Below, one piece after another: positions 46,701 through 52,901 of a DNA stretch of 64,000 bases. The stretch spans positions 470-64,469 of IMG/VR virus record IMGVR_UViG_3300030433_002667. One strand, written 5' to 3'. The notes beneath the pieces are model-generated. The model was given only the letters and a program-made list of their open reading frames with translations. It had not been told where the DNA came from and made no database searches. The position numbers were made by a program, and so were the translations under genes. The DNA comes from a virus. The stretch's first letter is position 1, and every line of letters starts with the position of its first letter.

Positions 46701-47180
46701 TTAGCCACTCCTACTAAACCCACTGTTGGTTAGTGGGCCTCCAATCTTGGTTCTCAATTCTTTAGTGACCATGGCGCTAATTTCATTGGCTAACTTGCGC
46801 TTGTCAGTCCTGTCAGTGACTCCACTAACATCAATCCTAAGATTTACCGTAACATTGCCGGGTGCTTCTGTTTCTATAGGGGCTGCCCTTCGCTCGTCTA
46901 CTCGCTGAGCCGTAGGACTTTGGCTACGGGTCTTGGTCTTCTCAAGCCCCGTCTGTACTTCCTTGATTGAGTCTTCCATTTGCTTGAAAGGCTCGGCTGC
47001 GCCCATCTGCCTAAGTGATTCTCTCAGGTCAGTAGTATGAGTCTTGGTCATAGCCATAGAGGCTGTGAACTTGTCCATTGTCTGCTGAAGAGCCTTCATA
47101 CTTTGCTGAGATTCCTCTGCATAGCGCTTGAAGTTCTCCATTGCTTCTACGCTCTTTGGGTCTATATTTCCGTCTACCAT
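46701..47180 (-). CDS. Very short tape-measure-like protein (159 aa)
   Basis: Sits in the TMP position (after G/GT, before Dit-like genes). Helical Q/M/A-rich N-half; TMP-like C-terminus NVTVNLRIDVSG...RKLANEI...V.KEL. Confidence 0.5.
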   Translation of the reverse strand: MVDGNIDPKSVEAMENFKRYAEESQQSMKALQQTMDKFTASMAMTKTHTTDLRESLRQMGAAEPFKQMEDSIKEVQTGLEKTKTRSQSPTAQRVDERRAAPIETEAPGNVTVNLRIDVSGVTDRTDKRKLANEISAMVTKELRTKIGGPLTNSGFSRSG

Positions 47181-47389
47181 TCGGTTCCCTCCAGTGGTGG
47201 CACAGAGTCATAGCCCAAGTAGACTGCGCCTTCAGCCGCCTGTTCTTCCCCTAACATAGCCTGTGCCCAGTAGAGTAATTGCTTCGCATCATTTACAGAC
47301 AATTCCCTCACTTCCTTTAATCCCATATTGTAATGTGTCATCAGTAAATATTCCATTCCTTCTTGTTGTAGGCGAAGCCGTTCACTCAC
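47174..47389 (-). CDS. Tail assembly chaperone, T segment (likely expressed as a GT fusion)
   Basis: The -1 frame is open from the slippery site at 47443 into this ORF (GFSGGEVGLIKQFIHGRSV-SERLRLQQEG). Confidence 0.65.
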   Translation of the reverse strand: MSERLRLQQEGMEYLLMTHYNMGLKEVRELSVNDAKQLLYWAQAMLGEEQAAEGAVYLGYDSVPPLEGTEW

Positions 47390-47724
47390 TGACCTCCCGT
47401 GGATGAACTGCTTGATGAGTCCGACTTCGCCTCCCGAAAAACCAACCAGTCCATTACTTGACTTGGTTCAGGTAAAAGTGCACTTAATTTAGCCCCATCT
47501 TGGGGAGATAAATCATCTATGTCTATTTCTATAGAACGACCGTCTGGGTCTGAATAATGCAACCAATGTGAAAAGGCATGTCTCCAGTAATCGGAAAAAT
47601 CTAGGCTACCGTGCATCATCAGTGGGGCAACTGCCTGAATATGATAAAACGTCAATCGTCTATTACTGACTAACACTGGCTTACCGTTTATTGTGACTTT
47701 ATTCTTCTTCTTCTCCTGCGACAT
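47386..47724 (-). CDS. Tail assembly chaperone G
   Basis: Follows the tail tube gene; ends in low-complexity REAKSDSSSSSSTGGQ just after a slippery site. Confidence 0.7.
   Translation of the reverse strand: MSQEKKKNKVTINGKPVLVSNRRLTFYHIQAVAPLMMHGSLDFSDYWRHAFSHWLHYSDPDGRSIEIDIDDLSPQDGAKLSALLPEPSQVMDWLVFREAKSDSSSSSSTGGQ
47436..47443 (-). promoter_or_regulatory. Putative -1 programmed ribosomal frameshift site G GTT TTT C
   Basis: Located at codons 95-96 of G; a -1 shift joins the downstream T ORF exactly in frame. Confidence 0.6.
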
Positions 47725-47929
47725 ACTTACTCACGTCCTCGTCGGATGCAGCCGAATCATCGGGGGCATCCTCCAGTGCAAGGTGGGCGAACGGGTCATC
47801 GCTGGCTCTCCCTGCTTCTGGGTCGAAGAGGTTGTCTCCACCCTCTTCCTCTTCATCATTGACATCTACTGTAATCAATCCACCCGAAGGGTGTAGGGAA
47901 CGGTAGGTTTTCATTGGCATGATTCTCAA
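47699..47929 (-). CDS. Small highly acidic protein
   Basis: D/E-rich 76-aa ORF filling the gap between the tail tube and G genes. Confidence 0.5.
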   Translation of the reverse strand: MRIMPMKTYRSLHPSGGLITVDVNDEEEEGGDNLFDPEAGRASDDPFAHLALEDAPDDSAASDEDVSKYVAGEEEE

Positions 47930-50064: not shown

Positions 50065-50511
50065 TCACGGAATGGCCTCTGCCAATATCACTACCTCTAC
50101 TTGGAAGGTGTGGCGAAACAACTTCTTGGTTCTGTCGCTCAAATCAGTCCGAGTCTTGAGAATCATACGGTCAAAGTTAGCACCATCACCTTTCCTCTGA
50201 GTATGAATGAGCCTCCTCATTTCATCCTCCATTTTCCGCAATCTGGAACGACCACGGGTTGTTCGCATATCTACTGTGATATTAACACGAGTAGTCACGA
50301 AATTGTAAAACAAATCTGGCACTTCTTCATTCAGTGCTGTCTCATAGCATAGTACGTAATCGTGGCGCTGTAAATCCAAGCGCTTACCACGCTCTGGCCC
50401 CTCACTAGCAATGTCAATGATGACGGGCTTGATATTATCAGAGTTAGCCCGATTCCATGTTTTGAGAACATCAATGACGGTCTCAAGAGGCTCTTTCCAA
50501 TCTGCCGTCAT
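50065..50511 (-). CDS. Tail terminator / completion protein
   Basis: ATG 50511 overlaps the adaptor stop (ATGA). alpha-beta pattern with VNITVDMRT...R..KM.DE..R.I; canonical position before the tube gene. Confidence 0.6.
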   Translation of the reverse strand: MTADWKEPLETVIDVLKTWNRANSDNIKPVIIDIASEGPERGKRLDLQRHDYVLCYETALNEEVPDLFYNFVTTRVNITVDMRTTRGRSRLRKMEDEMRRLIHTQRKGDGANFDRMILKTRTDLSDRTKKLFRHTFQVEVVILAEAIP

Positions 50512-52493
50512 GCAAACACCACTATCTCCTTGTAGCGACTCAGAATTTCCATTGCTTCCTTGCGCCAAAGTTGAATCTTAGAGCCCAAGTCTACATTCTG
50601 TGTCCCTTCAGGGATAAGGACAGAGCGGTCATCTGACATGAGAAGTTCGGAGCAAACTAACTTGGTCGCAGCCTCCTCAATGGCTTTCTCCAAATAGCGC
50701 TCTCCATAAATGTAGGATGCCTTGACAGCATTCCACTCAAAGAATGGATATGAATTGTTGAAGTAGATAATCCCCATCTCAGCATCCAGCCACCAATCTT
50801 TGAGGCGCTGCTTATCACCAGATGTTCCAGAAATAAACCCAAGGTCAGGGTTAAGCCTCTTCTGAGTAATAGTCGTTCCAATCTTTGCAGCACCACTTGT
50901 ACCACCAAGTTGTAATCTCAAATCATTGGCTATGTCAGTAAAGCCACTTATCACTCCAGTAGTGACAGCGGTAGGAACTCCAAGAATCGGCGTCACAGTA
51001 TCGTCCGCACCTTCTCCTATAAGGTGAGTCGTGGTGTCTTCTACCACACTTGAATAATATGCAACTCTAGTGGATTCCCCATTGGCGATGGTGACCAATC
51101 CTCCGTTTTTACTGAGGTTGTCTACTTCGGTCGAAAGAATAACGACCTGTGTTGTATCAGCCGCTTTAGTTGGCTTAGCAGTGTAAATGTATTCGTTATC
51201 AACAAGAGGAACTTTGATTCCCCCGTCGTTTGCAACTCTAACGCTATTTATGCCGACAGCAGTGACGATGCCGATGACAGTGCCCTTCGCATTGTAAATC
51301 GTATCTCCATCTGAGATTGAGTCACGGGCATCACCACCATCTGTATCCATATTTAGTGCGTAACCTTTGGCATAACCGTTAGCGAAGTTAATCTGAACTA
51401 CAGTCTTGTGGTGCTGACTAGTTGCGGTGTGGCTACTGGTGTGACTGATACTTAGGTTAGTTTCATCACTTGCTGCTATAGATGCAGTCTTACCCCCACC
51501 TGCAGGGCGCATACTTGTGATTTTCAAAACGCCGCTACCGTAATCTGAATTGGCAGTAGCAAGGAACTCATGGTGTACAGAGACTTGCTGGGTTCCAGTA
51601 GATGTCTCCAGAGTTAAACCAGAGAAATCGATGGCTGACTTATTGACTCGGTCTTCTTTATTGATGAGGTCGGCTAAATTCTGTGCACTGGTCACTACAT
51701 CATAACTTGCTCTCCATTGATTAGATGCAGTGCCCACAGTGAGGGAAGCCGGTGTAGTTCCTTCTCCGGGGTGAATGTAAAGGGAATCTCCTGATAATTT
51801 AGCGTAGTCTACTACTTCCACTCTGGCCTCTGCGCCAGCCAGTTCTCTGTAATTATCACCTTGCCAAAGTTCAATGCGGAGCATTTGCTGGACATTGCGG
51901 TATAGTAGAGGAGTTGTCCCTACGTAATCAGTATAGTATCGGCGACGATAAGGCTTGTAAGTATCGAAGTTGATGTATTCCGCAACGCATAGATAAGGTC
52001 TCCAAGCATTGTGAGTCCAGTTATCGATACGGTCTTGGATGCGACGAATGTGAGTATTCACGATATCCTTTGTTACACCACGGCTCTTACCATTAGTGAA
52101 CACCGATTTATTCTGAATCTCTGTGTTCGCAGCAGTAGTATAACTGGCAAAGGCATCGTTTTCACCTGCAGCCCCCGCATCCAAAGTGACGGGTAACTTG
52201 ACATACTTTGTTCCAGTTACATCTTCTACTACAGGTGCACCGATGGTAAAGGTCTCTCCAAGAGGATAAAGGTCACTAATGGCGAGAATTGTATCCCCGC
52301 TTTCAAAACCATGCTCTCTCAAATCAGTCCCTGTAATGTAGAAGCCGGTGGCTGAAGCATCGGCAGCAGCGAGCACAGGCTCTCCCGGCGCAATGCCCAG
52401 CAGTTCTCCCACCTTGTCAGCCGTTGTATACACAATGGCTTCAGGGTTAAGGGGTCTTGTTTCAGCCTCGCCGGGTGAGAATACTACTGGCAT
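50508..52493 (-). CDS. Head-tail adaptor (gp6/gp15-like) with large insertions
   Basis: YTTADKV.ELLG, I.RIQDRID.W...AW, W.LDAEMGII.F, VKASYIYG and IEEAATKL adaptor-type segments, separated by beta inserts. Confidence 0.6.
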   Translation of the reverse strand: MPVVFSPGEAETRPLNPEAIVYTTADKVGELLGIAPGEPVLAAADASATGFYITGTDLREHGFESGDTILAISDLYPLGETFTIGAPVVEDVTGTKYVKLPVTLDAGAAGENDAFASYTTAANTEIQNKSVFTNGKSRGVTKDIVNTHIRRIQDRIDNWTHNAWRPYLCVAEYINFDTYKPYRRRYYTDYVGTTPLLYRNVQQMLRIELWQGDNYRELAGAEARVEVVDYAKLSGDSLYIHPGEGTTPASLTVGTASNQWRASYDVVTSAQNLADLINKEDRVNKSAIDFSGLTLETSTGTQQVSVHHEFLATANSDYGSGVLKITSMRPAGGGKTASIAASDETNLSISHTSSHTATSQHHKTVVQINFANGYAKGYALNMDTDGGDARDSISDGDTIYNAKGTVIGIVTAVGINSVRVANDGGIKVPLVDNEYIYTAKPTKAADTTQVVILSTEVDNLSKNGGLVTIANGESTRVAYYSSVVEDTTTHLIGEGADDTVTPILGVPTAVTTGVISGFTDIANDLRLQLGGTSGAAKIGTTITQKRLNPDLGFISGTSGDKQRLKDWWLDAEMGIIYFNNSYPFFEWNAVKASYIYGERYLEKAIEEAATKLVCSELLMSDDRSVLIPEGTQNVDLGSKIQLWRKEAMEILSRYKEIVVFA

Positions 52494-52529: not shown

Positions 52530-52901
52530 TCAATAACCCTGTCGCCACATCAATGACTTGATACTCTTCAATAGTTGATTTCCAAGAGACTTCTCAAGTA
52601 GATGAGGATAGTTAATTGATACATCCATTGGGTGCATATATTCCCCTGTTTCTGGATTCATCCGAGCACCTTCATCATACATCATTTGTGCTATCTCTTC
52701 GTCAGTTCTGTTCTGGATTGCATTTGGAAGGTCTTTCCTTCTTCTTAGATTGATGTTGCGCACATGCTCAGTAATCCCAACCATCTGATTCTTATCTCGC
52801 TCTGTTTGTTCAACACTAGATGTAGGGCCTTGTTCAGCCTCATTGGTCTCTTGTCCAGTGGTTGTATGTTCTTCATCGTAATGGTCAGGCATGATTAGCA
52901 C
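52530..52901 (-). CDS. Hypothetical protein with C-terminal Lys-Ser cluster
   Basis: 123 aa; ends LLEKS-LGNQLLKS-IKS. Confidence 0.55.
   Translation of the reverse strand: MLIMPDHYDEEHTTTGQETNEAEQGPTSSVEQTERDKNQMVGITEHVRNINLRRRKDLPNAIQNRTDEEIAQMMYDEGARMNPETGEYMHPMDVSINYPHLLEKSLGNQLLKSIKSLMWRQGY

Follow-up and report, generated by a model that had tools for sequence, protein, structure and literature searches.

The closest known case to the locus analysed here is RcGTA of Rhodobacter capsulatus, whose ruler g11 (Rcc01694) is made of a 113-residue helix, 83 further residues and a 20-residue helix, and fills five tube hexamers and one Dit hexamer (PMC7296036). The authors of that study propose that short rulers and needles are related (PMC7296036). 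The classical protein ruler is gpH of lambda, acting with gpG and gpGT (Katsura 1987, as cited in PMC9022992). In the podovirus P22, the gp26 needle is a short rod-like plug in the tail channel.

Magroviruses, a widespread marine lineage, are viruses of Marine Group II (MGII) archaea. According to published descriptions, those of group A (Apasviridae) possess thermosomes and a very large LamG-like protein. For the Aoguangviridae, the absence of a tail sheath has been published, and magrovirus tails are regarded in the literature as non-contractile. The taxonomy profiles of magroviruses give the tail as 'helical tail' and nothing more, and no discussion of the length of a magrovirus tape-measure protein was found in the searchable literature.

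Here, I describe a tail locus in which the place of the tape-measure gene is taken by an open reading frame (ORF) of only 159 amino acids (aa). As in RcGTA, the putative ruler is very short, would belong to a non-contractile tail of siphovirus type, and is predicted to have a long N-terminal helix and a short C-terminal one, separated by a non-helical stretch; the two are likened by layout, not by sequence. However, at 134-163 aa (in some members as much as 195) and with ~76 helical residues, the magrovirus family is shorter still than the RcGTA ruler (~216 aa, with a 113-residue helix). Its hosts are archaea, and its tail proteins greatly exceed those of RcGTA in size, with 709 aa in the tube protein, 863 and 656 aa in the Dit-like pair and 5566 aa in the presumed tip protein. 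With lambda, the locus has in common the gene order of tube, G/GT with a -1 frameshift, ruler and distal tail genes, the assembly logic being assumed to be the same; gpH, on the other hand, counts 853 aa for a tail of ~135-150 nm, and the ruler proposed here is at most one fifth as long and without sequence similarity to it. P22, in contrast, is without a tube protein, G/GT chaperones and Dit, and the magrovirus locus has a tube protein, a G/GT-type pair and Dit-like proteins.

The tail module and its gene order

The window, i.e. the whole stretch of DNA that was analysed (64,000 nucleotides), corresponds to bases 470-64469 of the 69.6-kb IMG/VR record IMGVR_UViG_3300030433_002667, for which CheckV gives a completeness of 65%; the terminase, the portal and small ORFs are found in the 5.6 kb of the record beyond the window. 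All the structural genes lie on the minus strand of the window, and its gene set fits the published descriptions of magroviruses. The features of the tail module are collected in Table 1. Their order (tube, G and -1 frame T, slot ORF, Dit-like pair, giant protein) is the same in 12 relatives and in a complete genome (G001, the contig behind L011) of 109,462 bp, which is rated 100% complete, is syntenic with the record and encodes a slot protein of 140 aa. An earlier note on this DNA, made from the sequence of the window alone, had read this order as canonical for long-tailed viruses; the reading held both in the window and in the 12 relatives, given the tube family, the -1 overlap and the tube-fold proteins downstream.

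Table 1. Features of the tail module in window coordinates, listed in minus-strand order
Feature	Position	Strand	Basis or remark
Conserved neck-region protein, 661 aa	50508..52493	-	C-terminal part matches phrog_17057
Conserved 148/167-aa protein; candidate neck or tail-terminator protein	50065..50568	-	Directly upstream of the tube gene; candidate by position only
Major tail (tube) protein, 709 aa	47926..50055	-	PF18906 family matches, strong conservation; Phage_tube_2-like part ~448-651, extra domains in the N-terminal half
Small, very acidic ORF, 76 aa, TTG start	47699..47929	-	Kept at this position in relatives (67-79 aa), between tube and chaperone genes; overlaps the start of the G-like ORF
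Tail assembly chaperone, G-like ORF, 112 aa	47386..47724	-	Position and conserved -1 overlap; homologues beside short tape-measure genes in L018 and L019
Candidate slippery site, G GTT TTT C, then GGG	47436..47443	-	TTTTTCGGGA kept in the near clade
T-like extension, -1 frame, open from 47467; listed ORF of 71 aa (47174-47389)	47174..47467	-	Comparison across relatives; ends at the tape-measure start
Putative miniature tape-measure protein, 159 aa	46701..47180	-	Slot, C-terminal homology, AF2 model, conservation across clusters
Dit-like protein 1, 863 aa	44107..46698	-	Tube-fold core of N-terminal ~65 and C-terminal ~170 aa; large insertion with a Laminin_G_3 domain
Dit-like protein 2, 656 aa	42127..44097	-	Paralogue of the 863-aa protein
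Presumed tail-tip or fibre protein, 5566 aa	25434..42134	-	N-terminal ~630 aa conserved in the long-ruler clade

The assignment of a tube gene upstream of the slot, also made in the earlier note, is supported by family membership. PF18906 (Phage_tube_2) matches six of the 12 members of the tube family, with a best E value of 3.3e-9, and Phage_tube_2 is present in ~15% of the members of the ESM-Atlas clusters nearest to the 709-aa protein. The protein of the window itself matches PF18906 at E 6.3e-5 and 17.4 bits, below the Pfam cut-off of 27 bits, and a PDB sequence-profile search with the tube family returned nothing significant. As to a sheath, the families PF04984 and PF17482 gave no match at E<=1 in the record or in the complete 109-kb relative, by family models that could miss a divergent sheath; this accords with what has been published on the Aoguangviridae and on magrovirus tails.

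Upstream of the tube gene, the ORF of 167 aa opens with a TTG, yet nine out of nine relatives align with it from Met20. Its real product is probably a protein of 148 aa starting at about position 50511, in which case the overlap of 61 nt with the 661-aa gene is gone. Pfam searches of this family gave nothing usable (one member matches Tail_completion_gp17 at E 0.23), nor did a PDB profile search with the 148-aa protein return anything significant. Next to these neck genes, a 123-aa ORF (52530-52901, minus strand) shares its C-terminal tail (LLKSIK..WRQGY; E 6e-7) with a protein of 1307 aa found in the same slot of the complete relative (L028 348-4268, minus strand), the difference in length being ten-fold.

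A conserved short gene in the tape-measure slot

The slot ORF starts with an ATG (within ...GAATGGTAG) that overlaps the upstream -1-frame ORF by 7 nt, and its stop lies 2 nt before the start of the 863-aa gene. A comparison of the locus across magroviruses, which the earlier note had proposed, returned 16 viral contigs, and a slot ORF of 139-163 aa (59-71% identity) with intact neighbours on both sides is present in 12 of them. A search of 5.8 billion proteins with the 159-aa protein yielded 119 matching clusters, nearly all of 134-163 aa and with a query coverage of 99-100%; they come from Tara, JGI, ENA and Logan assemblies, some of the contigs being 90-104 kb long. In pairwise codon comparisons of the slot gene, synonymous sites are saturated, dN ranges from 0.03 to 0.32 and dN/dS, where computable, from 0.02 to 0.11. 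When the putative ruler and the tube protein were compared by tblastn with 50,697 GenBank phage records, no match was obtained, and hence no annotated relative.

Taken at face value, the unusual shortness of the ORF might suggest a truncated or mis-assembled piece of a longer tape-measure gene, and nothing further speaks for it. This can be dismissed with near certainty: the 119 clusters are independent, of the same length and covered in full, many of them on long contigs from different projects, the flanking genes abut the ORF without gaps or frame breaks, and the slot gene is under strong purifying selection. Assembly truncation is thus excluded by the recurrence of the short form in 12 contigs and 119 clusters and by the low dN/dS. 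The earlier note had stated that the tape-measure slot holds only a 159-aa protein, and that an assembly-truncated fragment would undo its inference; the ORF proves to be real and its short form conserved in relatives, and the fragment is contradicted by relatives, clusters and selection alike.

Members of the family carry disparate public names, namely 'ppGpp synthetase', 'MlaD subunit', 'response regulator' and 'glycine/serine hydroxymethyltransferase', while two members are named 'predicted phage tail protein'. Apart from the latter, these names look spurious.

What links the short protein to tape-measure proteins is its C-terminus. In four more distant contigs of related marine viruses (L014-L017), the slot is occupied by proteins of 432-451 aa, and only the last ~60 residues of these align with the 159-aa protein. 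The long proteins match the tape-measure families phrog_1535 (E 1.9e-22), phrog_58 (1.5e-11) and phrog_15478 (3.6e-9), as well as ~15 further PHROGs, and are by sequence unambiguous tape-measure proteins. An hhalign comparison of 14 short with 12 long forms gave a probability of 98.5% and an E value of 3.4e-15 over the last 49 columns only, corresponding to residues 107-155 of the window protein, a conserved C-terminal domain with the motif IDVSGVTDRTDK... The TMP-like C-terminus described in the earlier note is therefore supported, over these columns, by way of long forms which themselves match tape-measure PHROGs.

The similarity ends there. The N-terminal ~105 residues of the short form have no detectable relationship to the long forms in the profile-profile comparison, so that the short form is not a simple internal deletion of the long one. 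The long forms comprise ~350 residues of hydrophobic, aromatic-periodic helical repeats and a GGIVNxPTLAxIGEAGPEAVVPL motif, both of which are missing from the 159-aa protein. Searched directly against PHROGs, the 159-aa protein has its best tape-measure matches at E 0.016-0.15; it was missed by the phrog_15478 and phrog_58 searches, and its Pfam matches are chance helical ones below cut-off. A PDB sequence-profile search with the alignment of short and long forms gave nothing significant, and one with the long forms alone gave only a weak match (E 0.021), in which the GGIV motif aligns with a tape-measure chain of lambda type.

The family reaches well beyond these contigs. A profile search of 1.8 billion representative proteins returned 646 matches. 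In these, the C-terminal domain forms the extreme end of proteins that measure 139-600 aa, and many have 250-450 aa. Proteins of the short form, which bear the N-terminal motif MVDxxIDPRSVEAM, fall into at least seven clusters at 50% identity (145-195 aa); where they differ in length, it is mostly the linker and the second helix that account for it. For the most divergent short forms (P0042 and P0007), the genomic context comes from contigs of 4.4 and 1.6 kb.

Between the short and the long clade, identity amounts to 58-72% for the 661-aa neck protein, 63% for the 148/167-aa protein, 35-40% for the tube and 33% for the N-terminus of the giant protein. Since the viruses with the long form share the neck and tube proteins, the length of the ruler differs about three-fold between related viruses.

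Neighbouring tail proteins and the search for another ruler

Tail assembly chaperones G and GT serve the ruler during tube polymerisation. To judge by sequence, the chaperone layout of the window is the G/GT arrangement of lambda: the -1 frame runs on past the stop of G as far as the slot-gene start, both in the window and in 12 of 12 relatives, and TTTTTCGGGA within the overlap is kept by the near clade. The G/GT pair placed before the slot ORF in the earlier note has thereby found comparative support. Window-type chaperones, both G and T parts, are recognisable only beside short rulers (L018 and L019); in the long-ruler clade there is no recognisable similarity to them, despite neck proteins that are 58-72% identical. 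It follows that the N-terminus of the ruler and the chaperones vary together, as expected for mutually binding proteins, and an exchange of both together seems to have taken place. Between its tube and chaperone genes, the long-ruler clade has a protein of 145-154 aa in which a SAP domain is present (PF02037, E 1.6e-12; L017 5782-6225, plus strand).

Downstream of the slot, the 863- and 656-aa proteins have in common their N-terminal ~65 and C-terminal ~170 residues and carry different insertions. The smallest homologue (404 aa, from L017) was modelled with a mean pLDDT of 44.5, the beta core formed by the N- and C-terminal parts being better predicted; because of this low confidence, the fold is assigned from the core alone. 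In a structural comparison, the top 50 matches of the model are all proteins of the tail-tube fold (Z 9.7-5.9), including the baseplate tube initiators of Milano, Mu, Bas63 and pyocin R2, the Dit proteins of 80alpha, p2, SPP1 and T5, lambda gpM, and Hcp; with the tail of the archaeal virus HFTV1, the rmsd is 2.8 A over 122 residues. That the two proteins are Dit-like is supported by fold and position, a fold which does not separate Dit from other tube-fold baseplate proteins, and it is at this level that the Dit-like pair of the earlier note is upheld through paralogy and a tube-fold core.

All the short-ruler genomes seen, L018 among them, have two copies of the Dit-like gene (~850 and ~650 aa, differing in their insertions), whereas the long-ruler clade has a single one (404-458 aa). 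Shortening of the ruler and duplication of the Dit-like gene thus go together. As for the giant protein, the complete relative has two neighbouring ORFs, of 1652 and 3702 aa, in place of its single gene (G001 53598-69607).

With a slot protein so short, the ruler function might have moved to another gene, be it a segment of the 5566-aa or of a 1831-aa protein or a gene in the 35% of the genome that the record lacks, and the tail might then be long. The incompleteness of the record and the presence of very large proteins of unassigned role leave room for such a transfer, as does, in the clade with a 139-aa slot protein, the occurrence upstream of the neck genes of the 1307-aa protein, which is highly charged and may be helical. 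Tape-measure PHROGs, however, found no match in either half of the 5566-aa protein, in the 1831-aa protein or in four downstream ORFs, and phrog_1535 and PF10145 none across the record. Likewise, phrog_1535, phrog_58 and phrog_15478 had no match in the complete 109,462-bp relative, but they do detect the ruler of 450 aa in G004, the positive control; the seven large ORFs of the complete relative that have no counterpart in the record did not match tape-measure families either. These results refer to one 65%-complete record and one complete relative, and to family HMMs, by which divergent rulers can be missed. The 1307-aa protein of G001, with its proline repeats (PEMPPQ-type), was also weighed as a ruler and rejected, since its gene is not part of the tail module, it matches no tape-measure family, and the window has only an ORF of 123 aa in its stead. 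Moreover, the syntenic slot is filled by a conserved gene that has the C-terminal domain of a ruler. On these grounds, a relocated ruler appears quite improbable. The earlier note had named a long tape-measure protein elsewhere in the complete genome as evidence against its inference, and in the complete 109-kb relative the family searches found none.

The main alternative is that the 159-aa protein derives from a ruler and no longer measures, having retained just the C-terminal anchor with a short helical stalk and acting instead as a tail-tip plug, a needle or an assembly initiator, like P22 gp26; the tube, perhaps of one or two rings or of a fixed number of them, would then be set by the tube, Dit-like or terminator proteins. 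Along this line, only the C-terminal domain is in common with true tape-measure proteins, the N-terminal part being a different sequence without periodic aromatic repeats, and the restriction of the Dit-like duplication to short-form genomes suggests a remodelled distal tail. Needle-like features have also been noted in the short RcGTA ruler by its authors (PMC7296036). Such a loss of the measuring function is unlikely, though, in view of the dedicated G/GT pair and conserved frameshift signal, which have been retained and co-occur with the short form. In addition, the length classes (134-142, 159-163 and up to 195 aa) differ mainly in helix 2 and the linker, as would be expected if length still matters.

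The predicted tail and its significance

The preferred reading is that the 159-aa ORF encodes a genuine tail tape-measure protein, extremely shortened, which gives rise to a tail of few rings; I regard this as probable, and infer the ruler function, oligomeric state and tail length from the evidence above and the estimates below. AF2, run on an alignment of 14 sequences, predicts helices at residues 8-60 and 63-83, a disordered and variable linker at 84-120 and a helix at 124-146, with a mean pLDDT of 60, which rises to 82-86 at residues 11-40 and is lower in the rest. The protein has no hydrophobic segment. The prediction of a homotrimer from three copies scored 0.00, i.e. it gave no answer and has no weight either way.

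The rise of a helix is 1.5 A per residue, and in lambda a ruler of 853 aa goes with 32 rings. The 76 helical residues of the rod would accordingly span ~11 nm, and the whole 159-aa protein, if it were all helix, at most 24 nm. Scaled to RcGTA (216 aa for six rings, i.e. 36 aa per ring), the protein would account for ~4 rings, and scaled to lambda for ~6, in both cases with the Dit-like ring or rings included. The rod being very short, the tube would have only a few rings; the tail may be expected to comprise roughly 3-6 rings and to measure about 15-25 nm. This predicts a tail shorter than any ruler-built tail that was found described in the literature, and relatives with rulers of 432-451 aa would have tails about three times longer.

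By analogy with lambda, assembly would begin with the docking of the C-terminal domain (~107-155) in an initiator complex that the Dit-like pair, with its tube fold, would form together with the giant tip protein. The G/GT chaperones, made via the -1 frameshift, would coat the N-terminal helical rod (~8-83), around which the 709-aa tube protein would polymerise up to the end of the rod, and a terminator would cap the tube. The resulting virion would be a non-contractile, stubby-tailed particle with a very large distal complex. The earlier note had left two inferences side by side, a stubby tail and a relocated ruler: the former is now the better supported, no second ruler having been found, the latter is weakened, and the length of the tail stands as a prediction.

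A further proposal, which I hold with slightly less confidence than doubt, concerns the lineage as a whole. Group-A-like magroviruses may represent a morphotype intermediate between sipho- and podoviruses, with a ruler- and chaperone-templated tail of ~2-4 rings that is capped by two stacked or mixed rings of the duplicated Dit-like proteins and by the 5566-aa tip; related lineages would have switched between rulers of ~140 and ~450 aa by swapping the N-terminus of the ruler together with the chaperones.

To sum up, a ruler of 134-163 aa predicts a concrete and falsifiable shape, namely a very short non-contractile tail with a bulky tip, for an abundant group that has been neither cultured nor imaged, and this prediction can guide the identification of magroviruses in cryo-ET of seawater or of MGII enrichments. 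The lineage also offers a natural series of rulers (~135, 160, 195 and 430-450 aa long) in viruses whose neck and tube are otherwise conserved, useful for approaching the minimum length of a ruler-templated tail and the relation of sipho- to podovirus-like tails. Group-A-like magroviruses rank with the most abundant viruses in ocean surface waters. If the intermediate morphotype is true, marine EM counts would record their virions as short-tailed or even as non-tailed, and their protein rulers would be the shortest known.
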